DNA of 64,000 nucleotides from Myxococcota bacterium (GTDB lineage: Bacteria > Myxococcota_A > SURF-8 > G963663525), in NCBI GenBank assembly GCA_963676915.2, contig CAXXVK010000068.1, positions 1 through 64,000 on the forward strand, written 5' to 3'. Of this stretch, positions 3,202-51,888 are shown in pieces (position 1 is the stretch's first letter; each line of letters begins with the position of its first letter). The notes under the pieces were generated by a model. The model saw only the letters and a list, made by a program, of their open reading frames with translations. It searched no databases and was not told the DNA's origin. The translations under genes and the position numbers were made by a program.

Positions 3202-3240
3202 AAAAACGACCCGTTCATCTGGAACAATGAACGGGCCGTT
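3202..3240 (-). terminator. Intrinsic terminator downstream of the giant lipoprotein gene
   Basis: Minus strand AACGGCCCGTTCAT-TGTTCCAG-ATGAACGGGTCGTT followed by TTTA, about 30 bp after the stop. Confidence 0.65.
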
Positions 3241-3268: not shown

Positions 3269-6200
3269 CTATTCCGTACAAACGCCTTCTTCGCAGACTC
3301 CTGCCTCGTCGTTGCAAAGTGTCTGGTCGGGCAGAGAACAGGGTACACACTCCGAACCGTTGTAAAGATCTATCGTGCAATCGTTGTTGTCTTCGCAGAT
3401 GGGACCGATACCGGTTACCTGAATCTGATCCAGCCAGGCACGGTCACGACCATCGGAGTCTTCGTAGTCCTTGATGTATCCCCAATCCAGGCTGTGGAAG
3501 CCGGGTTCCAGGTCATATTGTTGAAGTGTCCATTCGAGGTATCCCGACCACTGACCTTTCAGTTCGCCGTCCAGATAGAAAACGAAGAAGTCGCAGTCCG
3601 GCTCGCTTTCCACTTTGAATTGGAAAGAAGCCTGTCCGCTTTCGTTCAACGTAACGTTGAATCCGAGCCAGGTGGTCTGGTTGTCTCCGATAACACCGCT
3701 TGCGGCGGAGTAGTTGCCTTCGAAGACTCGTTGAGAGGAGGCTTCCCATGCCACGTTGCCGCCGGATTGCCAATTTGGATCGATATAGCCCGATTCGAAG
3801 TCTTCTTGCACGTTCGAACCGAATCCTCCGCAAACTCCGCCCGCACAATAACCTCCGTTGTGGCAGGGAGAGCAATCGTCTACAGCCTGTGGCGTACAGG
3901 AGCCGGATAGGCAGATGTCGTTGGTGCAATCCGCTGCATCTTCGTCGCAGGTTGTGCCGTCTGTGACCGTGGGATGCTCGCAGACACCGCCGGAGCATTG
4001 ATCGGCGGTGCAGATGTTGCCGTCATCTTCGCAAGGTGTTTCGTCGGCGACGGGAGAGGTCTGGCAAAGACCGGAGCCGTCGCATTGGCCGGTCTGAGTG
4101 CAGGCGTTTCCATCTTCGCAGGCATGGCCTTGAGCGAAAGCGCAGAACACGCAGGTTTCGTCTCCGAGAAGATTGTCGGTGCAGGGGATCTCGTCATCGC
4201 AGGGAGACTCGGGAATTGCTTGAACCAGGATATCATCGATCCAGACCTTATCTCGTCCAACTGCTTCCACTTCGTCTTTGGAATAATTCCAATACAGGCT
4301 ATGACTTCCTTCCTCGATCGGGAATTCCACTCGTGTCCAGTCTGTATCACCGCTCCAAGCCATAAGTCCGTATCCGTCGATGGCAAAACCCAACTCGTCT
4401 TGATTGGCTTCTGTGTCCGTTTTTACATAGAACGATACCGTGCCCGGTGTCTCGAGATACACGGAGTAGAGACGGAATTCGCTTTCTCTGCCATCCAAAA
4501 GATCCGGGCTGGCAAAGGATTTCGTTCCCGTGTGGCTTTCGTCTTCTGTAATGATCCAATTGGCATCGCCGCTCCAACCATAGCTGGAATGGCGGATACC
4601 GCCGGATTCGAAGGTTTCGTCACAAACCGTTGAAAGACCGCTACAGGTTCCTCCCGCACAGAATCGTTCGGCATTGCCTCCGCAGGACTCGCAATCTTCC
4701 TTGGTTCGTTCCGCCGAGCAGTAACCGTATTCCGAGCAGGTTTTTACCGTACAGTCGGAGGGGTCATCGTCGCAATCGGTTCCTTGAGGAAGAGGAGTAT
4801 GCGAGCAGACTCCATCGAGGCAGGTATCCACCGTGCAGGGGTTGTCGTCATCGGTACAAGGCAGGTTGTTTTCCACCGGATTGTGGACACATTCTCCGTC
4901 CAGGCAGCTATCCGCCGTGCAGGGGTTGAAATCGTCTTCGCAGGCAAGGCCGTTGTCTAAGGGGTCGCCCGGTTGGCATTCGCCGTTCAGGCAGGTATCG
5001 TTTTGGGTGCATCCGCCGGATACGTTGCAGTCCCAGCCATCCGGCGAGACACATTCGACGCATTCTTCCTCACCTCCCCAGATGGACGTTCGGCAGTTGA
5101 TTTCGTTGGCACAATAGTTGTTGTATTCGATTCGAATGTCGTCGATCCACGCCTGGTTACCTTCGAACGTGCCTGCGTCGTCGTATTCGAAATACCAATT
5201 CAGCTCGTGGTGACCTTCGTCAAGAATGTAAGACGCCTGCTGCCAATCAATCGTTGTATACCACCAGTCCCATGGACCGTTGGAACTCCAGAACTCCATA
5301 TAGCTTTCCCGGTTCACGCTATCGACTTTGTACATGAAGGTGAGAGTCGCCTGATGTTCGAGATCGATAGTATAGGTCAATATACGGTATTCATACGTCT
5401 CTTCGGGAATAGCCGTTGCCGAGAAGCTTCCGCCATAGGCCAAATCTCCAGTGACGATCCAAGGGTACTCTTTACCGGTTTGCCATCCATCGGCCCATGC
5501 TCCGTTTTCGAAGCCGTACTCCAATATCGGAACACCGAAGCAGATGCCGTTTCCGCAAAGACCGCTTTCCTGGCAAACGGTGCAATTCGGCAGGTTTTGC
5601 GGCGTGCAGGTGTCTTCTACACAAGTGTCCGTGGTGCAGTCCGAAGCGTCCAGATCGCAGGATTGTCCGTCGCGGTCGCTGATCTGGCAGCTTCCTTGCT
5701 GGCATGTGCCGTCGGTGCATGGGTTATCTGCGTCGCATTCGGTGCCGTTTGCGGCAGGACAGGCAATGCAGGACGTGCCGTTGAACAGCGATGTGGCACA
5801 TTCTTCCAATTCGTGGCAAGACGTGCCCGATACGTAGATCGAATCGAGGAAGAGCGTAATGGGATAATCCTCGTGATAGGAATAGTCGTTGCGGATTTCC
5901 CAAGTGATTTCATGGAGTCCCCGGCCTTCGACAGAGTGGGAATTTCTCGACCAATACGAACGATTGTAGTTCGTATTGTACATATTCTCACCATCAATAT
6001 ATACACTGAACGTGCCTCGGTAATTATAGCTGGCACCACAGTAGTACATGTGACGATAGGAAATGCTGGTGTAGGTATTTGTCGTGTAGAACCGCAAGGA
6101 AATCGAGGTACTGCCGTTTTCTTCGTCTACCCTGGCGAACAGACCGTAGGTATCGTCGTATGCGGAATATCCATGGTCGTTTTCTCTTCGGATGGTCCAG

Positions 6201-9200
6201 GGATTCTCATCGTTGTTGATCCAGGCGTACGAAGAATTGAAGCAGCCGTAATCAGGTGCGCAGGATTCGAATCCTTCATCGATATCCGATTGGATGCCTC
6301 CGCATTCACCTCCGGCACAGAAGTTGGTACCATCTTCGCCACAAGTGCTGCAGTCCGGCAGATCCGCGTCGATGCAATGGCCGTTGTCGCAGTATTGTTC
6401 TGCACAGTCGTTTGGATCTTCGTCGCAACTTGTACCGTCGTTCAGGTACATTCCCGGTCGGCATCCGAGGTCTGGATGACAGGTTTCCTCACCGTTGCAT
6501 GGATCGCCATCGTTGCAGTAACTATTGTCCGCAACGTGTTCGATGGTGTCGGTTTCCTCGTTGCAGGTGTCGATGGTGCAGTCGTTGCCATCGCTCAGTT
6601 CCGGCGAGTCTCCACTCTGGCAGCCGTAATATTGGCTACAGGTTTCCACACCATTGCAGAACAATCCGTCGTCGCAATCGATCGGTGTGCCGAGACATTG
6701 CCCCAGTCCGTCGCATAGGTCGCTTTCGGTGCAATTGTCGTCGTCGTCGCACAGCGAGCCGAGATCCGTTGGAGGATGCGTGCAGGTGCCGGAGCCGTCG
6801 CAGATGTTCCGGGTGCAGTCGTTTCCGTCGCTGTTGCACGGAATTCCCGCTTCCAACATCACGTATTCGCAGGCGGGAACACCACGATCGTCGATGCAGA
6901 TGTCATCGGTGCATTCGTTTTCGTCATCGCAACTGAAGGCTTCGTGTACGCAGCCCTGAACTTCGTCGCAGGAGTCCACCGTGCAGGGGTCGCCATCGTC
7001 GCAATTTTGTAGCTGACCGGTGACACAGACGCCTGAGAGACAGAAATCGTTGACCGTACAACTAGAGCCGTCGGCGTCGCAAGCGGTGCCGTCCGCTACG
7101 ATGGTATTGCAAACACCGTCCAGGCATTCGTCCAGCGTGCATGGGTTGTCGTCTTGTTCGCAGGCGGTGCCGTTTTCGGAAGGTTCGATGTAGCATTCGC
7201 CGTTCCAGCCCTCTTTGGTACAGGGATCTTCATCCTTGCATTCGTCGTGGCGCTCGCAGGTATCTCCATTGCAGAAACCTCCGTGGCTGACACACAATGC
7301 AGCCCGATTGCACGAATAAATGTCGTCACCGCAACTCCAAAGGTTGTCGGGATCGCTATCTCCCGGCACCCAATAGTTTCCTACGCCATCCGGGCAGATG
7401 GACGTATTTACACCGGCGTTGGCGATGGTGTCGTACTGGTAATGAGGTTCGGTCCACCCGGCGGCGACAATGGCCAGGTATTCTTCATGCGTGATTAATT
7501 CCGCACCTTGGTCTTCGCACCATTGTTTGGCTGATTCACCGTAGCTAAGGCAGGGATCGGAAAGATGCGAGAGGCAGATGCCGCCATAGCTTCCCTCGGC
7601 GCATTCGTTCCATCCTCCGCATCGGGAGCCGAATGGTAGCGTTTCGTGCAGACATTCACCCGAACCGTTGCAGGTGTCACCGGTGCAGTCGTTGCCGTCA
7701 TCGTTACAAGCACTTCCTTGCGGCAGATTTTCGTGTACGCATTCTCCAAGACCGTTGCAGGCGTCCGAGGTGCATTCGTTATCGTCCTCGCTGCACGGAG
7801 TGCCCTCTTCGAAATGGTCTGCCTGACAGATTCCGTCCTGGCAGGTGCCTTCTCCCGTGCATTCGGAGCCGTCCCAGCAGGATTGCCCGTTAGCGACCTG
7901 TGAAGTGGCTACACATTCGCCGGATTGACAGGTCGAGGCGTTGGTGCAGGAGTTTCCGTCGTCGCAGGATGTGGACTCCGCAAGGTCGCAGTAGTTGCAT
8001 TCGCCATCGATGTCGAAATCGAGGGTGCAGCCGTTGCCGTCCGAGCAGGTGTCGTTCAGGAAAGTGATGTTGATGTCATCCAGCCAGATCCGGTTTTCCA
8101 CCCCATCTTCGGGAATGCCTCGATAGAACCAATCCAACCAGAAACTACCGGGTTCCAGGTAGTATTCATGCATGGTCCAGTCGCTGGTTCCGGTCCACGA
8201 AACGTCAATATCGTTGCCGTTTCCTGTGAAGAAGCTAAGCACCTGACCGTTTACAACGTCCTGGCCCTCTCCATATTCCGCTTCACGGGTCTCTAACTTC
8301 TGCCACCAACTGATTTTCGCCGGTTGATCGATTTCGACGTGCATCCAGATTTCGGCGAAGAACTCTTCATTGCTTTGTGAAGAGGCGGAAAGTGAATAGC
8401 TGCCCTCCACGAAAGCGGATTCGTCGAAGGTCCACTCAGCGTTATCAGCCCACGTGTCCAAGGCATCGTTCATGCTGTTTTCGAAACCATCATGGAAGAA
8501 TTTCAGCGGCAATTGACAGCTGCCATCGAAGCAGTAGCCCGATGTCAGGCCGCCGCCGTCGCAGGGGCTGCATTCTTCGACGTTGACCGTCTGGCAGGTG
8601 CCTTCGACACAGGTTCCCTCGATACAGTTGTTGGGGTCGTCGTCGCAGGATGCGCCCTCGTCGAGTGCTGTTCCCGGCTGACAGTCGAGAGTTGCGTCAC
8701 AGGTTTCGATGCCGTTGCATGGCTCATCGTCATTGCAGTAGTCATCCATAGGATCATGCTGGACGCCCATTTCGGAGTCGCACCAGTCGTTTGTGCAATC
8801 CACTCCGTCATCGATTTCCAGCGGTGTGCCTTCCAGGCAACCGAGTTGCGCGTCGCAGATTTCCTCGCCGTCACAAATATCGTAATTGTTGCATCGTTCG
8901 TTGTCGGGTGTATGCAGGATCGTATCGGTTTCTTCATCGCAGGTGTCTACAGTGCACCAGAAGTCGTCTTCCATATCCGGTGCGTTACCTTCAACACAAC
9001 CCAAGAATTCGTCGCAGGTTTCGATGCCGTTGCAATACAGGTCATCGTTGCAACGCTCGTCCATGGGATAGTGAACGGGCCTATCCAGTTCTTCGTCACA
9101 TGCATCGTCCGTGCAAGCCAAACCGTCGTCGATCAATGGCTCTCCACCCGGCTGGCATTCGCCTTGATCGTCGCAAAGTTCCAGGCCGTTGCAATACACA

Positions 9201-21200: not shown

Positions 21201-24200
21201 TCACAGAACAAGTCATTGGAGCAGAGTCCATGATTCGGGGTAAACTGACAGTCGTTTGCTGTGTCGCAAGTATCCACGGTGCATCCCACGTTGTCGTTGC
21301 ATAGAGAATCTTGCGGCGTATGTGTGACTTCCCCGATGTTGTCAGTGGTATCCGTGCCTTCGTCACAGGCGTCTTCGGTACAGGATATTTCGTCGTCGGT
21401 TGCTACGGCGGTACCGTCCTGGCAGTCGTTCACAGCATCGCATGTTTCCGCTCCGTTGCAGTAAAGACCGTCCTGGCATAGCTCGTCGTTGGGTGTGAAC
21501 TGGCAGTCGTTTACGGCATCGCAGGTATCTACTGTGCAGCCTACGTTGTCGTTGCATAGGCTGTCTTGTGGCGTATGTGTGACTTCGCCGAGGTTGTCGG
21601 TGGTATCTGCGCCTTCATTGCAGGCGTCTTCGGTGCAGGAAATTTCGTCGTCGATGGCGATGGCTGTGCCGTCCTGGCAGTCGTTTACGGCGTCGCAGGT
21701 TTCTGCACCGTTGCAGTATAGACCGTCCTGGCATAGTTCGTCGTTGGGTGTGAACTGGCAGTCGTTCACGGCGTCGCAGGTATCTACCGTGCAACCCACG
21801 TTGTCGTTGCAGAGGGTATGATTGGGGTTGTGTGTGACTTTATCGTTGATTTCATCGCAGGCATCCGTGGTACACGCAACGTTATCGTCAATGACTGGCT
21901 CGTCGCCGTCTTTGCATCCGGTGGTAGCGTCGCCATTGGACGGATCGCAGATTTCTTCTCCGTCACAGAACAGGTCATTGGAGCAGAATCCATGATTTGG
22001 CGCGAACTGGCAGTCGTTCACGGCGTCGCAGGTATCTACGGTGCAGCCTACGTTATCGTTGCATAGACTGTCTTGAGGCGTGTGTGTGACTTCTCCAAGG
22101 TTATCGGTGGTATCCGTGCCTTCGTCGCAAACGTCCTCGGTGCAAGAGATTTCATCGTCGGTTGCCACGTCGGTGCCGTCCTGGCAGTCGTTTACGGCGT
22201 CGCATGTTTCTACACCGTTGCAGAATAGTCCATCCTGGCAGAGTTCGTCGTTGGGATTGAATTGGCAGTCGTTCACGGCGTCACAGGTATCCACGGTGCA
22301 ACCGACGTTGTCGTTGCATAAGCTGTCTTGTGGCGTATGTGTGACTTCGCCTAGGTTGTCCGTGGTGTCGGTTCCTTCGTCGCAAACATCCTCGGTGCAG
22401 GAGATTTCATCGTCGGTTGCCACGGCGGAACCGTTCTGGCAGTCGTTTACGGCGTCGCATGTTTCTGCACCGTTGCAGAATAGTCCGTCCTGGCAGAGTT
22501 CGTCGTTTGGCGTGAACTGGCAGTTGTTTACGGCATCGCAGGTATCCACGGTGCAACCCACGTTGTCGTTGCATAGACTGTCTTGAGGCGTGTGTGTGAC
22601 TTCTCCAAGGTTGTCGGTGGTATCCGTGCCTTCGTCGCAAACGTCCTCGGTGCAAGAGATTTCATCATCGGTTGCCACGGCGGAACCGTCCTGGCAGTCG
22701 TTTACGGCGTCGCATGTTTCTGCACCGTTGCAGAATAGTCCGTCCTGGCAGAGTTCGTCATTCGGCGTGAACTGGCAGTCGTTTACGAGATCGCAGGTGT
22801 CTACCGTGCAACTCACGTTGTCGTTACATAGGCTGTCTTGCGGCGTATGTGTGACTTCACCAATGTTGTCCGTGGTGTCGGTTCCTTCGTCGCAAAGGTC
22901 CTCGGTGCAAGAGATTTCGTCGTCGGTTGCCACGTCGGTGCCGTCCTGGCAGTCGTTTACGGCGTCGCATGTTTCTACACCGTTGCAGAATAGTCCGTCC
23001 TGGCATAGTTCGTCGTTTGGCGTGAACTGGCAGTCGTTAACGGCGTCGCAGGTATCCACGGTGCAGCCTACGTTGTCGTTGCATAGACTGTCTTGAGGCG
23101 TGTGTGTGACTTCTCCAAGGTTGTCGGTGGTATCCGTGCCTTCGTCGCAAACGTCCTCGGTGCAAGAGATTTCATCGTCGGTTGCCACGTCGGTGCCGTC
23201 CTGGCAGTCGTTTACGGCGTCGCAGGTTTCTGTGCCGTTGCAGTATAGTCCATCCTGGCATCGTTCGTCGTTTGGCGTGAACTGGCAGTCGTTGATGGCG
23301 TCGCAGGTATCCACGGTGCAGCCCACGTTGTCGTTGCATAGGCTGTCTTGCGGCGTATGTGTGACTTCACCAATGTTGTCCGTGGTGTCGGTTCCTTCGT
23401 CGCAAACGTCCTCGGTGCAAGAGATTTCATCGTCGGTTGCCACGTCGGTGCCGTCCTGGCAGTCGTTGACGGCGTCGCATGTTTCTACACCGTTGCAGAA
23501 TAGGCCATCCTGGCAGAGTTCGTCGTTGGGATTGAATTGGCAGTCGTTTACGGCGTCGCAGGTATCCACGGTGCAGCCTACGTTATCGTTGCATAGGCTG
23601 TCTTGCGGCGTATGTGTGACTTCGCCTAGGTTGTCCGTGGTGTCGGTTCCTTCGTCGCAAACGTCCTCGGTGCAGGAGATTTCATCATCGGTTGCCACGG
23701 GGGTACCATCCTGGCAGTCGTTTACTGCGTCGCATGTTTCTGCACCGTTGCAGAATAGTCCGTCCTGGCATAGCTCGTCGTTTGGCGTGAACTGGCAATC
23801 GTTAACGGCGTCGCAGGTATCCACGGTGCAGCCTACGTTGTCGTTGCATAGGCTGTCTTGCGGCGTATGTGTGACTTCGCCTAGGTTGTCCGTGGTGTCG
23901 GTTCCTTCGTCGCAAACGTCCTCGGTGCAGGAGATTTCATCGTCGGTTGTCACGACGGAACCGTCCTGGCAGTCGTTCACGGCGTCGCAGGTTTCTGCAC
24001 CGTTACAGTATAGACCATCCTGACAAAGTTCGTCGTTTGGTGTGAACTGGCAGTCGTTAACGGCGTCGCAGGTATCCAGGGTGCAACCCACGTTGTCGTT
24101 GCATAGGCTGTCTTGCGGTGTATGTGTGACTTCTCCGATGTTGTCCGTGGTGTCGGTTCCTTCGTCACAAACGTCCTCGGTGCAGGAGATTTCATCGTCG

Positions 24201-25717
24201 GTTGCCACGGGGGTACCGTCCTGGCAGTCGTTTACGGCGTCGCATGTTTCTGCACCGTTGCAGAATAGTCCGTCCTGGCATAGCTCGTCGTTTGGCGTAT
24301 GAAGGATTTCTCCTTGATTATCGGTGGTGTCCGTGCCCTCGTCACAGGAGTCCACGGTACAGCTAACGTTGTCTTCAAGGACAACGGCGGTTCCATTTTG
24401 ACAATCATTTACGGCATTGCAGGTTTCCACACCGTTGCAGTACAAGCCGTCCTGACAGAGTGAATCTGTTGGGACAAACTGGCAGTCGTTTACGACATCA
24501 CAGGAATCCACGGTGCAGCTAACGTTATCGTTGCACAGGGAATCATTGGGCGTGTGGGTGATTTCACCTTGGTTGTCGGTGGTGTCCGTGCCTTCGTCAC
24601 AGGTATCCACGGTACATCCGACGTTATCGGTTGTTGTCGGAGGTGTACCGGAGACGCATGTTCCTTCGCCATTGCATGTTTCCGCGCCATCGCAGAAAAG
24701 TCCGTTGTCGCAGGCGGTTCCTGCTTCCAATGGGCTTGCGACACAGGCTTCCTCATCTTCATCGCAGATGCCTTCGTTGCAAACGTCGTCGAAATCGCTG
24801 CAATCTCGTGCGGTTCCCGTACAGACGCCGCCTTGGCACTGATCGTTTTGAGTGCAGTACAGACCGTCGTTGCAGGTCGTTCCGTCTTCCACGGGCGGAT
24901 GGATCACGTCTTTCGTTTCCGAGTCGCACAGGTCTTGCGTGCAGGGATCGCCATCATCCAAACCGGTAAGGCCATTGTCCACTTCACCGCTACAGTCGTT
25001 GTCATGACCGTCGCAACTGACTTCTGTTTCCTCGTAAAAATCCAGAAAATCCGCGTAGTTCGGCTCTTTCCAGCCACCGGCGACATCACAGATTTTTCGG
25101 ATGCCTTCGCAGGGGCCGAGTTGCAGATCGGCCAGTGGCGCTTCGGGCAGGTTGTCGTCTACGATGCCGTTGCAGTCGTTGTCCTTGGCGTCGCAGGACT
25201 CGGAATTACCCGGGTACCTTTCCGCGTCGTCGTCCTGGCAGTCGGAGCCGCCGCAAGAGAGTTTCGCCACACCGTCGCGGTCTTGATCCACTTCGATCGT
25301 TACCGACTTCACCGGGTCGCTCACGCCGTTTTCGAATTCAGGATTCAAGGCGAGGATTTCGAAGGTGACGCTACCCACAAGGGTCTGTTCCGACAGTGGG
25401 AAGGTCAGTGTGCCTTGTTCTTCGATCTCGATGTCCCAGCGCTGGAGTTGTTCTCCCGCTTCATTGCGAGCGATGATCGCGTAGGACGCTGCGTTGATCT
25501 GGTTTCCGGCCTCGTATGTAGCGACGACGCCGTCTTCCGAGCAGACCAGTTCAAGGGTACCCTTGTCGATTTCGTCCTGTAGGATGTCGCTGACATCGGA
25601 TAGGTCGTCGAAACAGCCTGTCGATCCAAGACCCGCCAACAGGAAGGCCAGTAGACCCAATCGGGCGGCTTGGAAAACATGAAATAGGCTTTGCGAGTAA
25701 GTCGGTTTGGCAACCAT
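3269..25717 (-). CDS. Giant (7,482 aa) Cys/Asp-rich surface lipoprotein, putative adhesin
   Basis: Uninterrupted 22.4-kb ORF with RBS GAGG before ATG 25717 and a signal peptide ending in a lipobox-like LAGLGSTG-C. Two MopE-like 'putative metal-binding' motifs (DQDRDG...DCQDDD..RYPG..E.CD..DNDCNG.VD). Many CDDGNPCT.D.C (Dicty CTDC-like) and CxDGLFCNGxExC repeats. 13 beta-sandwich domains (E/DxFE...W...W(I/L)DDI) and 3 CLec-like modules. Confidence 0.93.
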   Translation of the reverse strand: MVAKPTYSQSLFHVFQAARLGLLAFLLAGLGSTGCFDDLSDVSDILQDEIDKGTLELVCSEDGVVATYEAGNQINAASYAIIARNEAGEQLQRWDIEIEEQGTLTFPLSEQTLVGSVTFEILALNPEFENGVSDPVKSVTIEVDQDRDGVAKLSCGGSDCQDDDAERYPGNSESCDAKDNDCNGIVDDNLPEAPLADLQLGPCEGIRKICDVAGGWKEPNYADFLDFYEETEVSCDGHDNDCSGEVDNGLTGLDDGDPCTQDLCDSETKDVIHPPVEDGTTCNDGLYCTQNDQCQGGVCTGTARDCSDFDDVCNEGICDEDEEACVASPLEAGTACDNGLFCDGAETCNGEGTCVSGTPPTTTDNVGCTVDTCDEGTDTTDNQGEITHTPNDSLCNDNVSCTVDSCDVVNDCQFVPTDSLCQDGLYCNGVETCNAVNDCQNGTAVVLEDNVSCTVDSCDEGTDTTDNQGEILHTPNDELCQDGLFCNGAETCDAVNDCQDGTPVATDDEISCTEDVCDEGTDTTDNIGEVTHTPQDSLCNDNVGCTLDTCDAVNDCQFTPNDELCQDGLYCNGAETCDAVNDCQDGSVVTTDDEISCTEDVCDEGTDTTDNLGEVTHTPQDSLCNDNVGCTVDTCDAVNDCQFTPNDELCQDGLFCNGAETCDAVNDCQDGTPVATDDEISCTEDVCDEGTDTTDNLGEVTHTPQDSLCNDNVGCTVDTCDAVNDCQFNPNDELCQDGLFCNGVETCDAVNDCQDGTDVATDDEISCTEDVCDEGTDTTDNIGEVTHTPQDSLCNDNVGCTVDTCDAINDCQFTPNDERCQDGLYCNGTETCDAVNDCQDGTDVATDDEISCTEDVCDEGTDTTDNLGEVTHTPQDSLCNDNVGCTVDTCDAVNDCQFTPNDELCQDGLFCNGVETCDAVNDCQDGTDVATDDEISCTEDLCDEGTDTTDNIGEVTHTPQDSLCNDNVSCTVDTCDLVNDCQFTPNDELCQDGLFCNGAETCDAVNDCQDGSAVATDDEISCTEDVCDEGTDTTDNLGEVTHTPQDSLCNDNVGCTVDTCDAVNNCQFTPNDELCQDGLFCNGAETCDAVNDCQNGSAVATDDEISCTEDVCDEGTDTTDNLGEVTHTPQDSLCNDNVGCTVDTCDAVNDCQFNPNDELCQDGLFCNGVETCDAVNDCQDGTDVATDDEISCTEDVCDEGTDTTDNLGEVTHTPQDSLCNDNVGCTVDTCDAVNDCQFAPNHGFCSNDLFCDGEEICDPSNGDATTGCKDGDEPVIDDNVACTTDACDEINDKVTHNPNHTLCNDNVGCTVDTCDAVNDCQFTPNDELCQDGLYCNGAETCDAVNDCQDGTAIAIDDEISCTEDACNEGADTTDNLGEVTHTPQDSLCNDNVGCTVDTCDAVNDCQFTPNDELCQDGLYCNGAETCDAVNDCQDGTAVATDDEISCTEDACDEGTDTTDNIGEVTHTPQDSLCNDNVGCTVDTCDTANDCQFTPNHGLCSNDLFCDGEEICDPANGDATTGCKDGDEPVIDDNVACTTDACDEINDKVTHTPNHTVCNDNVSCTVDTCDLVNDCQFLPDDSLCQDGLFCNGAETCDAVNDCQDGTAVVIDDSVSCTTDACDEGTDTTDNIGQVTHTPDHTVCNDNVGCTVDTCDLVNDCQFLPDDSLCQDGLFCNGAETCDAVNDCQNGTAVVIDDSVSCTTDACDEGADTTDNIGQVTHTPDNTVCNDDVACTIDTCNPTTDCQHFANDAYCDNLLFCDGEETCDPEAGGDGCLTGTPPEIDDGIACTEDSCDEDQDKVLHEANDSLCANDGVACTVESCNPASGCETTNDHQYCDDGISCSIDTCDPLSGDPVSGCLYTADDTVCDDGLWCTGAETCDLANDCLDGTDPVLDDAVSCTLDYCNEENDTVEHLAFDAECDDNQFCNGAEWCDPVQDCQNGTPPETDDGIPCTVDACNETDGVTHTPDNTVCTDGIDCTEDICDTEAGCTYTPNDTLCNDSFSCTVDTCNIELGCQNDADDSLCLDDEPCNGVESCSPSSLGADGTTGCLAGDVPDEGSSCDDDPQDCVESTCQSGICTDNVFSDCTTCASEFGLCANGSCQMPDLQEGFETGALSALWITEGEREWLITSDQASTGTYSAQSGSIEAGESTTLSTIVTLQEDGGVAFSYKIDSERNADSLLFRVFSRTEVLGEWFEIIVPFSMASWSGAVNWARHSTDLSAGQYRLVWTYSKDESVDSGTDAAWIDDISVSGIASSACNDDNPCTLNLDGGGGCVSCNVENGTECGDTPSGECLSTPLCQSGVCSGGFKPAGTDCSDDGNECTVDQCDDSGVCDHVAAAECTACGDGSFCAASTCNGLEPSVENEGFDSEDVPQGWTSSGDAAWLLDTSQYYEGGKSIASGALAVGQVSTLQRTVELEGAASISFQLLVDLNDPQEIFRFYVNDELVYDLTGQPGMWQQVNWPLSAGSNSLKWTYARLEDSSTAQHRVWIDSVTIVGENGYCDDTSSCTSDIFNGTACVHCDLPDGQACIVEEECKASTGSCGSGACIVENLPDGTPCSAGRYCDSGVCTGHADCDDGNPCTVDTWNGECQYEFLAQGTPCADALFCNGVEVCNGTGTCVAGTPLFLSDNVSCTNDSCDEENDRIVHEIDHDLCQDGLYCNGAETCDSVRGCLPGTAIDPDDSIDCTEDLCDEGLDLSDNYAEVTHTPFNEWCDNGLWCDGAEWCNADDSGETPLGCNAGDAPTVADDYDCTNDWCDEENDEIVHDVQNSYCDDLEPCNGTEICVAEGDPGDGCQAGTPIANDETCDTDPEDCYVHTCQEQVCTAQQKDTGSTCGTEDDPYDCLSYACNEEGTCVETAFDDCTACGETGTDLCAGGTCGGKDYIKIEDFESGEFPAGWTTGGDASWVIFNEGANYSIGNGDISDYQSSWLKLPIELKTPGVLSFDYRVLTESGYDYLRLVLDDEIVESWSGYLNEYTHYETSLDTGIHTIEWRYTKDGSSSSYDDTVWIDNISITNAVGECDDGNACTSNLFDGNSCIACAGDDNTACDDGNSCTESSGTCQGGVCQASALDDLTPCATDENPCTDDVCLSGVCEHNELADNTSCDTDATDCTSNTCQSGVCTPQNLADCTACGDDNFCADGMCGGRPLELSDNFESGILPSGETFGGYGTWSTGGSAPWTVEEKTNPQSGSFVAVSGNIPSSSDTWLRLEIDLPRESTVSFWVSASTNCWDHYMYFYVDSSSQDYWHCGADWELFSTTVSEGTHVLEWKYSKNSSNASGEDKAWIDDFSIVPVSPCDDGNVCTAGYMGSESCVFCQEPMENLPCYDEVDCHESTGICHSGQCDAELMPVNTPCSDDGNACTRDLCGTSGICHHPPASEGLACDSDNNDCTIDQCDDSATCQHVPNTLGLDCSRGFETCDQGAYSGYCLAYLSEYSLEGSAREYCAERGARLLTYDEWITVTNAGWIRPNTYYRSVPVEGCSSCSEGEVCNMYAPTYGSPTSVYACGDTYSYRRGILCVRDDGYCEETGVCGIHDCDDGNPCTRDYWEGECKTETYVDGTPCPSDDNECTHDFCIQGMCNVPVSNGQSCDADGSVCTSNDACASGVCVPGDDLDCTDGDPCTIDACDPVEGCGSTPFTCDDGNPCTGSECFDDNGQPGCNYPPLDEGSSCTSDNKDCTADICDGAGNCTHPPAEAGLRCNDTDICTMRDQCNGSGLCIGTPIDCEDGLFCNGAEICDSEQGCIAGEPLQLDDGIDCTQDRCDEASDEIVHEANHSFCDDDLFCNGEEVCDLSLGCVPGINIVDGTSCDDDENDCSTSVCLSGSCQTNDLPDCTPCGTNDTQHCYQGECGGYTSAVNETFDTCEEGCFNPDYYWINEDNWTFSKTTPWNYSTSNMMVMACAEEVGETQTIQLKVHTTQENTAIDFDYAYYDGSYYSTYNEVLLTVDDNEYMTEVYSYSYMRNYDVVIEEPGIHTLSWSITNTGNNTSYTPCFALESVTYNGNDCADSEDCTNTLFIGDQCLVCPVEDDTLCNDGNECTDGNGSCQFGVCQSNDLPDGTPCSMGGHCSSGTCTQYEDCDDANPCTIDSWNGTKCSNDDAPVGFNCDDGLFCNGTDTCDGSGTCVAGTPPWLSDGVDCTDDLCDEENDIILHTENDANCDDGLYCNGVETCDYLQDCQTGDVPWTDDGVSCTVDSCDESSGTILHDPDHSSCNDSVECTIDECDPVLGCSNTPDDTYCDDDDPCTVDICDLYQGCIHEPLDCDDDKECTIDSCELVDNVPTCVHSDRPNGESCSSDENDCTQDICSDGVCTHPAEEDGLLCADDENPCTSDLCSSGTCSHPPVEDGTSCDESEQDCTFDTCQMGTCEAIPHPDCQACGENGEGLCAGGYCDGPVLTLEEDFESGEFPQGWTTGGDAVWVIDNEGDNYSIRSGDIEALQTTWLRLNVELQKPGTLSFDYRIHTQYSNNRFLLLIDGEIVNSWYGNTDSYSRVNYSLDAGIRTIEWRYYQRYVYNGEEYVWIDNVAINNLSSGCNDGNDCTTDLYDGVSCITCNEPDDTTCDDGNSCTSETLCQSGECLGGSSVDDGTQCSDDDNPCTSDICSSGVCQHDAFVDGTSCDSNEHDCVDYQCISGTCENTERNECDECGDNELCVGGVCGGYPSEINEGFDGSVLHGTWKTGGDKPWLIYSDYSRSGTKSVGVGQFSGYQSAWLELEVDLKQTGEISFWHDNYGDSYTLLFYINDALKFSDSYSSQWEERSFVNLEPGHYTFRWVASHTYDYDYDYYIFVDDVRITGLEEPCEDDGNMCTTEIFDSESCVTCNAVDGTECDDGDACSAFDTCLAGQCTVNEASFEGTPCQDDDFECTDDICNDSGSCVHPALVEGTPCSDEGNECTEDICDGTGSCGHPAYVEGTPCGDSDNVCLIGTCDGTGGCSEEEAPDDTNCFAESCDEGVYAEYCLTDLSEYGISGSARDWCAERGSRLLTYDEWIAVTDAGWTRPTTDYRNVPVENCPSNCSDGVCNMYAPGYSNPTSLYACGDTYNYRRGILCVNDVGACDGGICVPHVPCDDGNPCTIDTWRDGACRYELATLGTSCDDEEICTENDICDGNGTCMGSAVECSDDLFCNGLEVCESGVGCVTGEAPTLDDGVDCTEDTCNEDNDVILHTPMDEACDDGVFCNGVESCHLTLGCLSGVNQPNGSDCDDDPYDCKLSVCQDGQCNTEALPDCSACGEDGEFTCAGGSCGGYGEEFAEGFEFCGPQNGCFHPAANWDNDENLPWQIVNLEEEGIEGLTRQAEGNYALKGQVFEYNQSTEISFTFFTNDPNSELSFRELRYNLTDYAAYIYCYLDDSQVFYSYYDSSYWYQQTVQVDGVGEHEFRCNLSFTYNNYANRAPIFYLDDIRITGNICTNVDSVDCIETLSGGTSCVNCPYPDGSACDDDNPCTAPIGSCVNGQCEVELAPNDTPCGEDLVCLDGECIETDCDDDNPCTIDAWLIDTCTHDPVPAGTTCSDGVYCNGLELCDDQGECQPGGEPLIDDGLACTDDACDEELDRPVHYPMDERCNDDLYCNGIETCDEFLGCVEGNAPDMEDDFWCTVDTCDEETDTILHTPDNERCNNYDICDGEEICDAQLGCLEGTPLEIDDGVDCTNDWCDSEMGVQHDPMDDYCNDDEPCNGIETCDATLDCQPGTALDEGASCDDDPNNCIEGTCVEGTCQTVNVEECSPCDGGGLTSGYCFDGSCQLPLKFFHDGFENSMNDALDTWADNAEWTFDESAFVEGSYSLSASSQSNEEFFAEIWMHVEIDQPAKISWWQKLETREAEYGEGQDVVNGQVLSFFTGNGNDIDVSWTGTSDWTMHEYYLEPGSFWLDWFYRGIPEDGVENRIWLDDINITFLNDTCSDGNGCTLDFDIDGECNYCDLAESTSCDDGNSCTNASTCQSGECVATSQVANGQSCWDGSECTGEGTCQDGICQADHFEEGTPCSEDDNECTSDACNGLGECVHENLPQGSACNDDGNDCTGDTCNGSGECLHETLPFGSRCGGWNECAEGSYGGICLSHLSDPCLSYGESAKQWCEDQGAELITHEEYLAIVAAGWTEPHYQYDTIANAGVNTSICPDGVGNYWVPGDSDPDNLWSCGDDIYSCNRAALCVSHGGFCNGDTCERHDECKDEDPCTKEGWNGECYIEPSENGTACEQDDNPCTLDECLDGVCNTIVADGTACDADGSSCTVNDFCLSGVCVTGQLQNCDDGDPCTVDSCDEVQGCVHEAFSCDDENECTDDICIDDRGVPACEYVMLEAGIPCNSDGNDCTRNICDGSGTCTHPPTDLGSLCDDDDNCTESDLCDGLGQCLGTPIDCDDGLFCNGVETCSQYYGCQSGDSPELSDGNDCTIDTCNEETDTIEHVADNSYCNDGDPCNGEETCHPDLGCRPGMYLNDGTSCDEDPNDCAEQYCDNGHCIDADLPDCSTCGEDGTNFCAGGECGGIQSDIDEGFESCAPDYGCFNSSYAWINNDENPWTIRRENDHGYSAYDDTYGLFARVDEENGSTSISLRFYTTNTYTSISYRHMYYCGASYNYRGTFSVYIDGENMYNTNYNRSYWSRNSHSVEGRGLHEITWEIRNDYSYHEDYPITLFLDSIYVSGTSCHELEECATSLFNGTSCIACPAANGTECDADNPCTDGTCQQGSCQISDRDGQSCDLDASDCTTDTCVEDTCTPQNLPNCTVCQESGLCGNGICFGVPILEYGFENGAWADGWQTGKEYPWIVTGDLAYGGSFSATAIPEETYEYRILTYTIDLEHQATLTFMYKVDSVNRESYMEFWSSNGPWDWWYTTIDWQQASYILDEGHHELNWYFEYDDAGTFEGNQAWIDDIRIEYNNYCANEINCRTSIWGGEEECVECVSPDGWDCNVSGGCTQNDTCLNGECQPGDPLDNGLACEDDFNPCTADSCLDGECVHNPVENNLPCTDDDNPCTVDTCLDGVCSHTPLPQGTDCDDDPSDCTVKTCSEYGYCSAERTKEDCESCGGNAERFCAGGTCSGLSTVCDETFESGGIRHSSYGWSGDANWIITEDESHTGTKSFASPDLLDGRESEFRLYSVYLETPGTVSFYVKTDTEANQDELGFAIDGYGLMAWSGDTDWTRVEFPIEEGSHSLYWNYSKDEVEAVGRDKVWIDDILVQAIPESPCDDEIPCTDNLLGDETCVFCAFAQGHACEDGNACTQTGQCDGSGLCQTSPVADETPCEDDGNICTADQCSGGVCEHPTVTDGTTCDEDAADCTNDICLSGSCTPQAVDDCSPCHNGGYCAGGVCGGFGSNVQEDFESGYIDPNWQSGGNVAWEASSQRVFEGNYSAASGVIGDNQTTWLGFNVTLNESGQASFQFKVESEPDCDFFVFYLDGELKGQWSGYLEWTLQQYDLEPGFHSLDWGYIKDYEDSDGRDRAWLDQIQVTGIGPICEDNNDCTIDLYNGSECVPCSLPDQTLCNDEAGVCEEGVCTE
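20540..24660 (-). repeat. Intragenic tandem array of about 16 units of 255 bp (85 aa)
   Basis: Unit CNDNVGCTVDTCDAVNDCQFTPNDEL-CQDGLFCNGAETCDAVNDCQDGTPVATDDEIS-CTEDVCDEGTDTTDNLGEVTHTPQDSL. The GTGTGACTT landmark recurs every 255 bp (about 24121, 23866, 23611, 23356, 23101, 22846, 22591, 22336, 22081...). Near-identical at DNA level. Confidence 0.95.
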
Positions 25718-25777
25718 CTTGTCCTCACGATGTCAAAGAATCCGTAACGGGAAACAAATTTGCTTGTTTGGTGGGAA

Positions 25778-28012
25778 TCAGAAGCGACCGCCGACACCCA
25801 CGAACGTTCCTTCTTGTGCGACATTCACAATCGGCGTGATCTGCGCCGATTCCTTTACCTGGATATCGGTTTCGACGCCGGGCCGATTGACCACCTCGTC
25901 GTAAATGATGTAGGCCACCGAACCGACAGCCATGCCGATGCCGACGTAACCGACGATATTCCAGGCCAAGGCGCTTTTCTCGTTTTTATCGCGTTCCGAA
26001 ATGTAATCTTCCCGGTCTGCGTCGCGTAGGGCGACATCGGCGCGGGCGTCGTTGGCGGCGGCTTTGTCTCCGTATTTGTCGCCAAGCACCAGACCCGTAA
26101 CGCCAACCGCGGTGCCGATTCCGGCTCCGGCTACCGCAACCCAGAAGGGGGCGCGGGAGGGACGCTCTTTGACTTCCACCGGAGTCACTACGTTAGCCAG
26201 TGATTCTTTCGCCAATTGCTGACGGATATAGGATTCGAACTCTTCCTGGCTGGTTTTACGGCTGACGAGATCGTCCACTTTTTCTTCACTGAGCTTTTCG
26301 TTGAAACGGCGAGCGATTTCGGTGGTCATCGTGGTCAACAGGGCCATGAAGTCGTCGTTTTTGTCCTCTACCGAGAGGGTGAAGATGATCATTCCCGTGC
26401 GGACCTCCACGAAGCGGAGATCCACGCGGATTTTGGGTTCCTGATGGATCATGCTGCCCATCACGAGAAAGTCGGCGCTGATCTGCTGGCCCATCTGCAA
26501 GGCAGACTCGGTATCGAGCACCTGGCCGACTTCGCGTTCTTTCAGCAGGGCGTCGATTTTCGAGCGTTCCACCACGTTGAAATTCATTTTCGGTAGGTCC
26601 GAAGCCAGCGCCTCGCTGATACCTACGACCATCCAGACATCTTCGTTGTCACCGGTAACGTTGACGAAGGGAATGACTGCCAGCGTTGCGGAAACGTCTT
26701 TGAACTCGGTTTTCAGATCTTCGAAGAGATTGGCGTATTTGGGATCTTCCCGAATGGCTTTGGCGAAGAGCGCTTTGGCCTCGTTGGATTTCGTGCCCAT
26801 CAACAGGCGAGCTTTCATAAGGTCGCGGACGGTTTCGGTTTTCGGGCTGTGAGCGACCACCATATCCTCATCGAACGACGTATCCGACCAGCCGAGGTCG
26901 TCGAACAGTTTCAGCATGAGTTTTCGGGCATCTTTGAACAGATTGTCGGGATGAACGTCTCCCGTTACCGAACCGAGAACTTTGGCATCCTGCGCATCGA
27001 CAAGGCGCATGGTCAACATGCCTTTTTCTTTGCCGACTTTGTACGAACCCATCAGCAGGGAACCGGCTTCCAGCATTTTGCCGACTTCCACGGCCTGGCG
27101 GTCTTCGGTCACGCCTGCTTGAGCCAGAGACACTTCCCCCAGCACTTTCGCCAGTTGAGAACGCTCGACGATGTAGAGGTCGGTGTACTGGATCAGGTCG
27201 GCGGTGAGAACTTCGGAGAAACCGCCGGACAGCCAGTCCGTTTCCTTGTTTTTTTCAAGGTTTTTGAAAGGCAGAACCGCCAAGGGACGGGTGCGAACGG
27301 CATCGAGACGGTCGTCTCGACTATCGGTTTTCTTTTCACCTTCCTGCTCGATCTTCTCTTTGAGCTTTTGCAGATCGGTATCGGCTTCGATGCGTGCGAA
27401 CCAGTCTACTGCCTGCGTATCATGACCCAATCGGTAGTGAGAGGCCGCCATGGTGTAGAAAAATTCGCGGTATAGATTCAAATAGTACGAACTTTTGGCA
27501 TCTTTCACTTTTCCGAGGTTCTCCCTCTCGTCGATGACCACTCGGTCACCGTATGTTACGGCGGAGGCGTAATCTTTCTTTTCGTACGCCTGAATCAGGT
27601 TCAACATGGCGATCAGGTTGAGGTAGACGCGGTATTTTTTCTCTTTACCTGGCATGGTGAAAGGCTTGCCCGATTCGTATCGAGGTTTTTGTTTGTGGAA
27701 TTTGTTCAACACCGGAAGGTTGGCTTTGGCGCGTTGTACCTCGCTTTTAAATTGTCGAGGTGTCAATTTTCGTAGTGTTTTCCCTTGTTTATTCAAGCGG
27801 ATGACATTGTTGAAATAGCTCTCGTCGTACTCCATTTTCGAGAAAATGAAGCCCTTGAGATCGCTCAACGTTTGCACGCGAACCGGAGCTTTTTCCTCGG
27901 TGGCGGCTGCGCTTGCCGATGCAGGGAAAAACGTGGCAACCAGCAACAGCGTCATGGCGATAGCGGGCAGAATCCGACAGATACTTTGGAGAGTTTGGAG
28001 TCGAGCGGACAT
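25778..28012 (-). CDS. Secreted TPR-containing protein with two CsgG/HfaB (FlgO/TolB-N)-like domains and a C-terminal hydrophobic tail ending GGRF
   Basis: Start reassigned to ATG 28012 (AAAGGAG RBS, signal peptide ending ASASA). Two LAV(L/I)PFxN...VERSx(L/I)xx(V/L)LxE...A..(V/M)G....A..L.MGS...(M/L)R(L/F)V domains, TPR-like helices, two Gly-rich hydrophobic segments and a terminal ITPIVNVAQEGTFVGVGGRF. Confidence 0.8.
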   Translation of the reverse strand: MSARLQTLQSICRILPAIAMTLLLVATFFPASASAAATEEKAPVRVQTLSDLKGFIFSKMEYDESYFNNVIRLNKQGKTLRKLTPRQFKSEVQRAKANLPVLNKFHKQKPRYESGKPFTMPGKEKKYRVYLNLIAMLNLIQAYEKKDYASAVTYGDRVVIDERENLGKVKDAKSSYYLNLYREFFYTMAASHYRLGHDTQAVDWFARIEADTDLQKLKEKIEQEGEKKTDSRDDRLDAVRTRPLAVLPFKNLEKNKETDWLSGGFSEVLTADLIQYTDLYIVERSQLAKVLGEVSLAQAGVTEDRQAVEVGKMLEAGSLLMGSYKVGKEKGMLTMRLVDAQDAKVLGSVTGDVHPDNLFKDARKLMLKLFDDLGWSDTSFDEDMVVAHSPKTETVRDLMKARLLMGTKSNEAKALFAKAIREDPKYANLFEDLKTEFKDVSATLAVIPFVNVTGDNEDVWMVVGISEALASDLPKMNFNVVERSKIDALLKEREVGQVLDTESALQMGQQISADFLVMGSMIHQEPKIRVDLRFVEVRTGMIIFTLSVEDKNDDFMALLTTMTTEIARRFNEKLSEEKVDDLVSRKTSQEEFESYIRQQLAKESLANVVTPVEVKERPSRAPFWVAVAGAGIGTAVGVTGLVLGDKYGDKAAANDARADVALRDADREDYISERDKNEKSALAWNIVGYVGIGMAVGSVAYIIYDEVVNRPGVETDIQVKESAQITPIVNVAQEGTFVGVGGRF

Positions 28013-28457
28013 GGGAATCTCCTTTGGAAACGGTATCGTACCGAAAATATCGAATGTTTTTGCGTCTGTTTTTCGAGCGAAAGCGTGCAGCATGTCAAGA
28101 ATAGATATCGTCCAACCGCATTCAAAACGATGGCTTTCGTCGAAATCGACGCATTTCATCAACTTTGAAGAGGTTAAAAATATCGCGCCCCTGTAAATTA
28201 TTTTTACCTGATAAACGAAGCACCTGTGGAGGAAGGATTCCAAGCCAAAAAAATCGAGAAAAAAGCGGCGGTGCCAGTATCCGAAGTCTCCTTAAAACAC
28301 GCGATGCGCATTTATCCTGTAAAAATACTTATATGATTGAAAATATAAGAAATGGCAGCAATTGTCAATTCGTTCCTCGACGAATATCGTTTCTGTTTCC
28401 TGAAAGGAGAAGGTGAGAAAAACACTGTGATTGCAAGTGTTTCGCCACAATTTGACG

Positions 28458-28485
28458 AAAAAACGGCGGCACAAGGCCGCCGTTT
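28458..28485 (-). terminator. Intrinsic terminator after gdhA
   Basis: Minus strand AAACGGCGGC-CTTGT-GCCGCCGTTT followed by TTT. Confidence 0.75.
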
Positions 28486-39556: not shown

Positions 39557-39914
39557 ACCGGGCCTCCATGGGCAAGACATAAATCTTAAGCAAAAAACGG
39601 AATGCGCTACTATTCCACAGGCTGTTTCTCATGGCAAGAAAGTTGAAGCGACTTTCTTAGTCTGTTGTACGATTTGGAGCTCTTGAAAAAGGATCCAGTT
39701 GCATTGTATATTGAAAAGTAAATTATTTTGTGCGATCTTTGGGATTCACTTTAAAAATCCGCACAAAAATAGGTACAATCCCTGGTTCCTTCATTGCAGC
39801 GTAGTCCAGGTTTTGATTGTATTTTTTCTGAAAATAATGGTACATTAAATTTGAGCATATGCTTGGATTTTCTTGGGATTCCCGGAAGCATATACCGACT
39901 GTAAAGGGGGACAA

Positions 39915-49254: not shown

Positions 49255-49444
49255 TTGCAACCTCTACGATTGAACTTTGCAAAAGGATGCTGTATTCTAT
49301 TCTTCGTGGCGTCTATCTTCCTTGACGGGATGATTCGACCCATTGAACCACAAAATTTCAAGGGAGGAAATCCGACGGTACGCCCCCGGTCGAATTTTTT
49401 TCGGACATTCGACCTTATTGAAGCGATTTTTCTACCAGAAAGCA

Positions 49445-51847: not shown

Positions 51848-51888
51848 ATTATTCTGATTTTACTTGGATTTTCGAAAGTACCGCATTC

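Follow-up and report, generated by a model that had tools for sequence, protein, structure and literature searches.

A FlgO/CsgG-type envelope protein encoded with a giant cysteine-rich lipoprotein: a candidate helper for very large lipoproteins in uncultured Myxococcota

The locus described here comprises two co-oriented genes in a 64,000-nucleotide (nt) stretch of DNA (the window throughout; contig CAXXVK010000068.1 of assembly GCA_963676915.2, positions 1 to 64,000) from a Myxococcota bacterium of the SURF-8 lineage. The upstream gene, gene 1, encodes a 744-residue exported envelope protein belonging to a rare Myxococcota family with FlgO/CsgG-type domains; the downstream gene, gene 2, encodes a 7,482-residue protein which we predict to be a giant, acidic, disulfide-rich lipoprotein composed of adhesin-type modules. 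Judged from their sequence signals the two genes form one operon, and a large lipoprotein gene follows relatives of gene 1 in most of the loci available for comparison. We consider the chances about even that gene 1 supplies a periplasmic scaffold, anchored in a membrane, which helps large lipoproteins translated from the same message; it is probably not a CsgG-type channel.

The assignment of a single operon follows from the anatomy of the locus (Table 1). The genes are separated by a 60-nt gap furnished with a ribosome-binding site, no stable hairpin or terminator was detected in this gap, the folding of which is no better than that of shuffled sequence (z -0.45), and intrinsic terminators lie on both sides of the pair. 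Open reading frames (ORFs) and folding thus confirm the arrangement given in a preliminary description of the window, which had presented the pair as a candidate surface-display system in what looked like a self-contained operon. The upstream terminator ends a glutamate dehydrogenase (GDH) gene and marks the upstream limit of the operon. The reading frame of gene 1 is open from position 28243; the ATG at 28012 is the likely start, since orthologues begin at the same point in our alignment of the family (A1) and a signal peptide follows. The sigma-70-like promoter match upstream of gene 1 is a consensus match only, two such sites occurring in the region against 2.9 expected. Were it used, the leader would be about 330 nt long; the idea of a riboswitch was looked into, and no Rfam family was found in the leader at its gathering score.

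Beyond the window, relatives of gene 1 fall into 21 clusters (36-100% identity) in a collection of 5.8 billion proteins, and all family members come from uncultured genomes. The gene was detected in six of 401 sampled genomes of the phylum (E<=1e-30), with a single match in each. Seventeen loci could be assembled for comparison: the window, five from the phylum sample, eight from genome contigs and three from metagenomes. One of these (L007) is cut at the gene itself, so that its downstream side is uninformative and 16 informative loci are left. At least one large lipoprotein gene comes after the gene-1 relative, on the same strand and with the spacing expected of an operon, in 13 of them; the linkage in other genomes on which the preliminary description had staked its proposal is therefore present.

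The downstream lipoproteins (cargos, for brevity) range from about 920 to 7,482 residues where they are complete, some others being cut by contig ends, and they represent at least five domain types. Giant Cys-rich cargos are found in the window and in a sister species (G018; 7,412 residues, gap of about 60 nt), and cargos with RCC1 and MopE domains in two genomes (G181 and G191; 1,274 and 1,287 residues). DUF7151 proteins, with or without Kelch or collagen repeats, occupy this position in four loci (L002, L003, L006 and L009), three in a row in the first two. A further four (L001, L004, L005 and L010) carry a gene with a FlgT_N domain followed by a lipoprotein of about 2,000 residues with DUF7107 and CarboxypepD_reg domains, and one (L008) carries a 2,004-residue protein with FG-GAP and Stig1 domains. 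In the nine loci measured, the gene after gene 1 starts -10 to +129 nt from its stop codon, with overlaps of 1-10 nt in four; starts in these high-GC loci were picked by eye at signal peptides.

The flanking genes also vary from locus to locus. In the window they are of a housekeeping kind according to Pfam (GDH and an MMPL-type transporter), and elsewhere, by eye, they include ribosomal protein S2 with EF-Ts, topoisomerase I and malic enzyme. Because lipoprotein types and flanking genes both differ between loci, it is the linkage itself that is conserved in these related uncultured Myxococcota. A maximum-likelihood tree of gene 1 (15 rows, with L004 and L007 left out as partial) points the same way: cargo type changes several times along it, the FG-GAP locus being nested within the DUF7107 clade and MopE-headed cargos occurring in two distant clades. 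An adjacency that survives while both cargo and surroundings change speaks for a functional connection. As a base rate, the genome from which the window derives contains 214 mechanically called ORFs of at least 900 residues, some of them spurious, against 2,804 of at least 300 residues; 13 of 16 is far above chance by this measure, with the reservation that the loci are related and do not constitute independent trials. Inspection of the operon surroundings by eye revealed no conserved gene for an outer-membrane barrel.

Genomic context also bears on the proposal of an envelope signalling module which reports on the state of the surface lipoprotein and has gene 1 as its sensing or regulatory arm. 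The operon of G191, which runs on into a gene for a CHASE2 adenylate/guanylate cyclase, is what such a module might look like. However, genes for sigma or anti-sigma factors, kinases or cyclases are not found beside the pair in the window or in most loci, and Pfam recognises no output domain in gene 1. We regard a signalling role as very improbable.

The product of gene 1 opens with a Sec signal peptide ending ...LLLVATFFPASASA/AAT, without a lipobox cysteine; its hydrophobic core, at residues 11-29, has a score resembling that of a membrane helix. No canonical lipobox was found among the orthologues of alignment A1, read by eye. The next ~190 residues are conserved and helical in appearance. 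Of the TPR-like helices reported for this part in the preliminary description only a weak trace is found in gene 1 itself, with models below threshold (TPR_2, E 0.052; TPR_6, E 0.081), and the signal is clearer in relatives, the longer of which carry clear TPR arrays. In the ESM Atlas, the nearest cluster consists of TPR proteins from Myxococcota (score 0.91).

Two alpha/beta domains follow, as previously described. Pfam reports CsgG (PF03783, E 2.4e-18) and FlgO (PF17680, E 5.5e-14), each in two stretches, and places the second FlgO domain at residues 429-543. Both FlgO matches exceed the curated cut-off of 22.6 bits in the genome-level scan, and both domains align to the 130-position FlgO model almost one-to-one, without a large insertion; the best CsgG stretch covers only positions 39-102 of that 210-position model. 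Being FlgO-sized by profile coverage, the domains leave no room for the transmembrane hairpins of CsgG, and on this evidence they are FlgO-type domains devoid of pore-forming hairpins, in agreement with the caveat attached to the first account of the locus. The sole solved relatives found by profile are FlgO chains of Vibrio cholerae (9yds and 9yfg, E 1e-4). Other families match the same two domains weakly, below curated cut-offs: LpoB at residues 442-544 (E 1e-3, 19.5 bits against a cut-off of 22.3) and, as the only NCBIfam match in gene 1, the N-terminal part of TolB at residues 240-382 (E 2.6e-4). Gene 1 differs from LpoB and TolB in having neither a beta propeller nor a lipobox, and no Tol-Pal or penicillin-binding protein genes lie nearby.

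FlgO thus offers the closest point of reference. In the Vibrio motor, according to a preprint, FlgO and FlgP form C58 rings which are tethered to the outer membrane by lipid anchors, lie beside the FlgT ring and anchor 'without forming a membrane pore' (bioRxiv 10.64898/2025.12.02.691832). In its proposed role we liken gene 1 to FlgO, FlgP and FlgT, which build a membrane-tethered ring without a pore, a comparison favoured by the profile matches above and by the FlgT_N-domain gene which accompanies the gene-1 relative in four loci. The differences are nonetheless considerable. Gene 1 is 744 residues long, lacks a lipobox, and joins tandem FlgO-type domains to a helical N-terminal part and a hydrophobic tail; the window contains no flagellar genes, and instead of a motor the protein is partnered by a giant lipoprotein.

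CsgG, the curli channel of type VIII secretion, is a lipoprotein in which two beta-hairpin insertions build a 36-strand pore, and HfaB anchors the Caulobacter holdfast. Gene 1 resembles these proteins in its Pfam CsgG match and in its link to a surface or adhesive product. It departs from CsgG in lacking a lipobox and space for the pore hairpins, and in a cargo which is a huge disulfide-rich lipoprotein instead of the small amyloid subunits of curli. Its sole operon partner is the giant lipoprotein, and genes resembling CsgE/F or HfaA/D are absent from the window.

The last 130 residues of gene 1 constitute a distinct tail. A Gly-rich hydrophobic segment (VAVAGAGIGTAVGVTGLVL, residues 625-643) is followed by a charged stretch of about 40 residues, a second Gly-rich segment (IVGYVGIGMAVGSVAYIIY, residues 686-704), a linker of about 30 residues and a last strand, ...TFVGVGGRF; the two segments and the terminal GGRF strand noted at the outset are accordingly confirmed. 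In the final 23 columns of the alignment the hydrophobic periodicity has its maximum at 170 degrees, a beta-like value, whereas that of the two Gly-rich segments is ambiguous between helix and strand. A profile of 13 tails (A2) was searched against 1.84 billion representative proteins and gave 83 matches at E<=1e-3, of which 18 reach E<=1e-10 and two E<=1e-30, nearly always at the C-terminus. Pfam was run on 61 of the 83 proteins, the 22 omitted being family members already in hand or short fragments: 12 carry CsgG/FlgO, 12 PEGA, 13 TPR only and 20 no family, while four are likely false matches with eukaryote-type families. Many of the bearers are small TPR or PEGA proteins. The portability suggested for the tail is thereby borne out across CsgG/FlgO, PEGA and TPR proteins, and the tail looks like a portable anchor, a C-terminal module shared by periplasmic proteins.

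A rival reading, the boldest version of the earlier proposal, turns on the membrane that such an anchor would occupy. Many tails might insert into the outer membrane, as Gly-rich hairpins or as a glycine-zipper bundle, with the terminal Phe strand serving as a signal for the beta-barrel assembly machinery (BAM), and so create a channel or dock for the lipoprotein. The last residue is aromatic in 11 of the 16 family members examined, the last strand is beta-periodic, as noted, and the Gly-rich segments are on average less hydrophobic than control helices of the MMPL transporter. One orthologue, P0015 (818 residues), has in place of the two-segment tail a beta-rich, aromatic-rich end of about 200 residues (~620-818, terminating ...LLRVTARF) with a sub-threshold OMP_b-brl_2 trace (E 0.036), which hints at outer-membrane anchoring of at least that member. 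The cargo domains are, moreover, of extracellular type, and glycine-zipper anchors of alpha-helical type in the outer membrane have been reported for SlyB and YfgH (bioRxiv 10.64898/2025.12.22.696046 and 10.64898/2026.06.08.730324).

Set against this, the 13 tails matched no Pfam family, outer-membrane protein families included, glycine-zipper families were unmatched even at E<=10, and no solved structure was matched; nor did Pfam detect a beta-barrel domain in gene 1 or in the tail. In orthologues P0017 to P0019 there is just one hydrophobic segment, and the terminal strand is missing. A folded, multi-disulfide protein of 7,482 residues would, besides, be unable to pass a pore the size of that of CsgG. 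SlyB and YfgH, reported as glycine-zipper outer-membrane lipoproteins, share with the tail paired Gly-rich, moderately hydrophobic segments which may serve as a membrane anchor; in gene 1 the segments are about 40 residues apart and form no tight hairpin, a lipid anchor is missing and a terminal Phe strand is added. We judge an outer-membrane portal decidedly unlikely. The more elaborate version, in which copies of gene 1 form a ring through their FlgO-type domains beneath the outer membrane and their tails make a dock or portal that mounts very large lipoproteins on the surface, is likewise a long shot. If it were true, this ring or portal would be a route of lipoprotein surface display distinct from Slam, BAM-coupled export and type IX secretion.

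In the scaffold reading which we prefer, gene 1 would be exported by Sec and remain non-lipidated, with its helical N-terminal part and its two FlgO/LpoB/TolB-N-type domains in the periplasm, and the portable C-terminal module (two Gly-rich segments and a terminal Phe strand) would hold it at a membrane. There it would most likely act as an accessory scaffold, holder or tether for the large lipoproteins of the same transcript, and the helical part could hold an extended polypeptide. The operon anatomy, the domain identities, the want of space for pore hairpins, the conserved position beside large lipoproteins of varying type and the portability of the tail are observed; contact between the gene 1 and gene 2 products, the membrane in which the tail sits, any oligomeric state and a surface location of the lipoprotein are inferred.

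Several observations weigh against a helper dedicated to its neighbour, or against particular parts of the scaffold reading. Firstly, gene 1 is single-copy in its own genome (5.18 Mb, 91% complete), in which dozens of large Cys-rich lipoprotein-like ORFs occur, none with a gene-1 neighbour. Secondly, full-length paralogues of the RCC1/MopE cargo number five in G191, five in G038 and two in G181 (loci L032-L037), with one gene 1 in each genome. Only two of these 12 adjoin gene 1 (one in G191 and one in G181, none in G038), and the four paralogue loci inspected by eye have other neighbours within about 1.5 kb. Thirdly, three loci lack the downstream lipoprotein: L011 has a Cys-rich protein and a 1,014-residue protein upstream, G038 has convergent unrelated genes downstream, and G283, a distant and longer homologue, has a divergent Cys-rich giant with Dicty_CTDC matches upstream and a 986-residue secreted protein downstream. 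Fourthly, no obvious docking motif was found in the mature N-termini of the cargos beyond the lipobox. Fifthly, the ESM Atlas model of the orthologue P0009 is poor (pTM 0.33, pLDDT 0.59), its structural neighbours all having TM-scores <0.5. Finally, as regards placement, on the Hessa scale, used alongside that of Kyte and Doolittle, the two segments of the window protein score 1.93 and 2.32 and those of the family as a whole +0.5 to +5.1, and nine helices of the MMPL transporter in the same window score -1.35 to +1.76. Since these ranges overlap, an inner-membrane helical hairpin and a seat in the outer membrane are equally possible for the tail, which also tells against the portal.

With one gene 1 facing several to dozens of similar lipoproteins per genome, a strict one-to-one system is argued against. 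As far as these counts indicate, such lipoproteins do not in general require gene 1, whose product may help others in trans as well or may act on the neighbouring lipoprotein alone. The earlier picture of a self-contained pair holds for the operon and its terminators, while the lipoproteins and cargo paralogues elsewhere in the genomes argue against a dedicated pair. The proposal that gene 1 may oligomerise in the outer membrane and anchor, chaperone or export the giant is partly supported: the conserved linkage agrees with it, and the outer-membrane seat, the oligomer and any channel are conjectural.

The same imbalance could be explained if gene 1 were a general envelope scaffold, for instance one that ties peptidoglycan to a membrane or organises the periplasm, with no particular connection to the lipoprotein beside it, and if large lipoprotein genes tended to insert into an inherited arrangement. 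A single gene 1 beside many similar lipoproteins, the three loci of 16 without the neighbour and the presence of the same tail on many small TPR or PEGA proteins all fit such an account, as does the occurrence of LpoB, TolB-N and FlgO-type domains in periplasmic scaffolds of other systems, going by the family descriptions. It sits less easily with the overlaps and gaps of <=17 nt in most measured loci, which point to co-translation, and with an adjacency which persists across at least five cargo types and differing flanks. The rarity of the gene, too, suits a specialised role better than a housekeeping one. We therefore think a general scaffold rather unlikely.

Gene 2, for its part, is rich in aspartate (13.6%) and cysteine (9.6%) and poor in lysine and arginine (2.2% together). 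Its N-terminus has a signal-like stretch ending ...LLAGLGSTGC, and the S-T-G-C lipobox after a hydrophobic core is common to the window giant and its sister-species orthologue; the two were compared over their first ~2,900 residues and share 65% identity there. Lipoboxes were assessed with the pattern [LVI][ASTVI][GAS]C, and the cargos of most other loci have canonical or near-canonical boxes (e.g. LAAC, LAGC, LSGC and LASC). The layout of residues 36-250 recurs in the RCC1 lipoproteins encoded downstream of the G181 and G191 relatives of gene 1 (BLASTP, 34-36% identity, E ~1e-36), a similarity which comes mostly from the MopE part. A shared docking domain was considered for the ~110-residue domain that begins this region and was dropped, the domain alone being only 17-20% identical between the window giant and the G181 and G191 cargos.

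Further along, a self-search revealed a Cys-free module of about 150 residues, which was aligned as A3. Among solved structures, the A3 profile picks out the extracellular region of human ELAPOR1 (9vqm, E 8.4e-7), on account of which we interpret the module as probably a galactose-binding-like beta sandwich; in Pfam it yields only sub-threshold CBM_35 and MAM traces. A second module (LLTYDEW) occurs in three copies, at residues 3453, 4978 and 6074, and matched no family and no structure. Neither module has a further copy in the rest of the genome. For the whole protein, Pfam returns only Dicty_CTDC, DUF5975 and CshA_repeat traces. No autotransporter, RTX, two-partner secretion, type IX secretion or MYXO-CTERM model of Pfam or NCBIfam matched either half of the giant, much as had been stated when it was first described, and its C-terminus (...EEGVCTE) has no hydrophobic tail. 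The 85-residue tandem array (Table 1) is a likely hotspot of length variation and also of assembly error. The genome has an unusual wealth of very large, acidic, Cys-rich ORFs resembling lipoproteins, for example on contigs C35, C43, C1, C62, C19, C53 and C57, several ORFs being longer than 3,000 residues with 5-14% Cys.

Table 1. Features of the gene 1 and gene 2 locus and of related loci; positions are those of the window unless a locus is named.
Feature	Position	Strand	Remarks
Gene 1	25778..28012	-	744-residue exported envelope protein, rare Myxococcota family with FlgO/CsgG-type domains
Gene 1, signal peptide	27893..28012	-	Residues 1-40, ...PASASA/AAT, signal peptidase I type; read from the translation
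Gene 1, N-terminal helical region	27308..27880	-	Weakly TPR-like; residues ~45-235, conserved columns of A1
Gene 1, FlgO/CsgG/TolB-N-like domain 1	26954..27295	-	FlgO positions 18-125 of 130, 27.7 bits
Gene 1, FlgO/CsgG/LpoB-like domain 2	26384..26728	-	FlgO positions 7-118 of 130, 32.3 bits
Gene 1, C-terminal tail module	25781..26170	-	Last 130 residues; alignment A2
Intergenic spacer	25718..25777	-	60 nt; GAGGA ~6 nt 5' of the ATG of the giant
Gene 2, giant ORF	3269..25717	-	7482 residues, start ATG
Gene 2, Cys35 codon	25613..25615	-	Predicted lipidation site; lipobox S-T-G-C, non-canonical (Ser at -3)
Gene 2, N-terminal region of cargo	24968..25612	-	Residues 36-250; ~110-residue domain, then MopE-type Cys motifs
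Gene 2, tandem array	20630..24298	-	255-nt (85-residue) Cys-rich unit, 14.4 copies, 81% matches; visible in the translation
Gene 2, Cys-free module region	3404..19405	-	10 to 12 copies of a ~150-residue module ending W-I-D-D-I, with Cys-rich stretches between
Upstream intrinsic terminator	28462..28481	-	Hairpin -17.4 kcal/mol, z -4.2, then UUUUUU
Downstream intrinsic terminator	3202..3240	-	Hairpin -24.1 kcal/mol, z -6.7, then UUUUU; 3' of the giant gene
Sigma-70-like promoter match	28340..28368	-	TTGACA, 17-nt spacer, TATTTT; 10/12 consensus positions
FlgT_N gene between gene-1 relative and cargo	L001:12178-13413, L004:863-2518, L005:11164-13353, L010:12091-13305		Secreted, ~400 residues
Second secreted family	L024:5913-8588	-	
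Second secreted family	L011:2244-5285	+	
Second secreted family	L025:10388-13345	+	

Two further gene families recur around relatives of gene 1 (Table 1). The genome of the window has one FlgT_N gene, at C4:18437-19642 (L029:1384-2589), between genes for a secreted protein and a FecR-domain protein. A second secreted family of 890-1,014 residues, with no Pfam domain and 28-35% mutual identity, is linked to gene-1 relatives in three of the more distant loci; in G191 the CHASE2 cyclase gene follows its member, and tblastn found no copy in the genome of the window. Elsewhere in the window, a 493-residue ORF (31794-33275, + strand) matches Pfam Crr6 (named for chlororespiratory reduction 6) at E 2.7e-6, its 27.6 bits exceeding the cut-off of 25, an odd match in this genome for what is, going by its Pfam name, a plant or cyanobacterial-type family. 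A cluster of genes for large multi-PAS/GAF hybrid histidine kinases (1,872, 834 and 790 residues) is situated at 39873-45491 and 49343-54261, downstream of the studied region, and showed no link to the operon.

The general kind to which the pair would belong, an accessory envelope protein encoded with its lipoprotein cargo, is already known. Slam proteins (DUF560 family) have a TPR-type periplasmic part and are reported to be encoded beside the lipoprotein they handle (PMC5449769 and PMC7857515). By that description gene 1 is comparable, the envelope protein gene standing beside a lipoprotein cargo in 13 of 16 loci and the cargos varying, and the TPR_Slam model is matched in long relatives (P0082, E 1.7e-17, above cut-off; G283 and P0028, E 2.8e-4, below it). 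Unlike Slam, gene 1 and its relatives have no C-terminal 14-strand DUF560 barrel, with no Pfam match to that family in gene 1 or in the tail, and the TPR signal of the window protein is below threshold. Within the search terms used and the collection covered, we found no paper on the pairing of gene 1 with a lipoprotein or on the tail module.

To our knowledge, the handling, anchoring or surfacing of very large lipoproteins is understood only in a few model groups, namely the Slam system of Neisseria, the Bacteroidota and the spirochaetes. The locus described here adds a concrete and conserved candidate for a helper of such proteins. It also illustrates that the label 'CsgG/HfaB family' can hide a non-pore scaffold of FlgO type, and it defines an uncharacterised C-terminal anchor module which ends many TPR, PEGA and CsgG-like proteins of Myxococcota. 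Should the pairing prove functional, it would offer a way into the question of how the unusually rich coat of giant Cys-rich lipoproteins is built in these bacteria.

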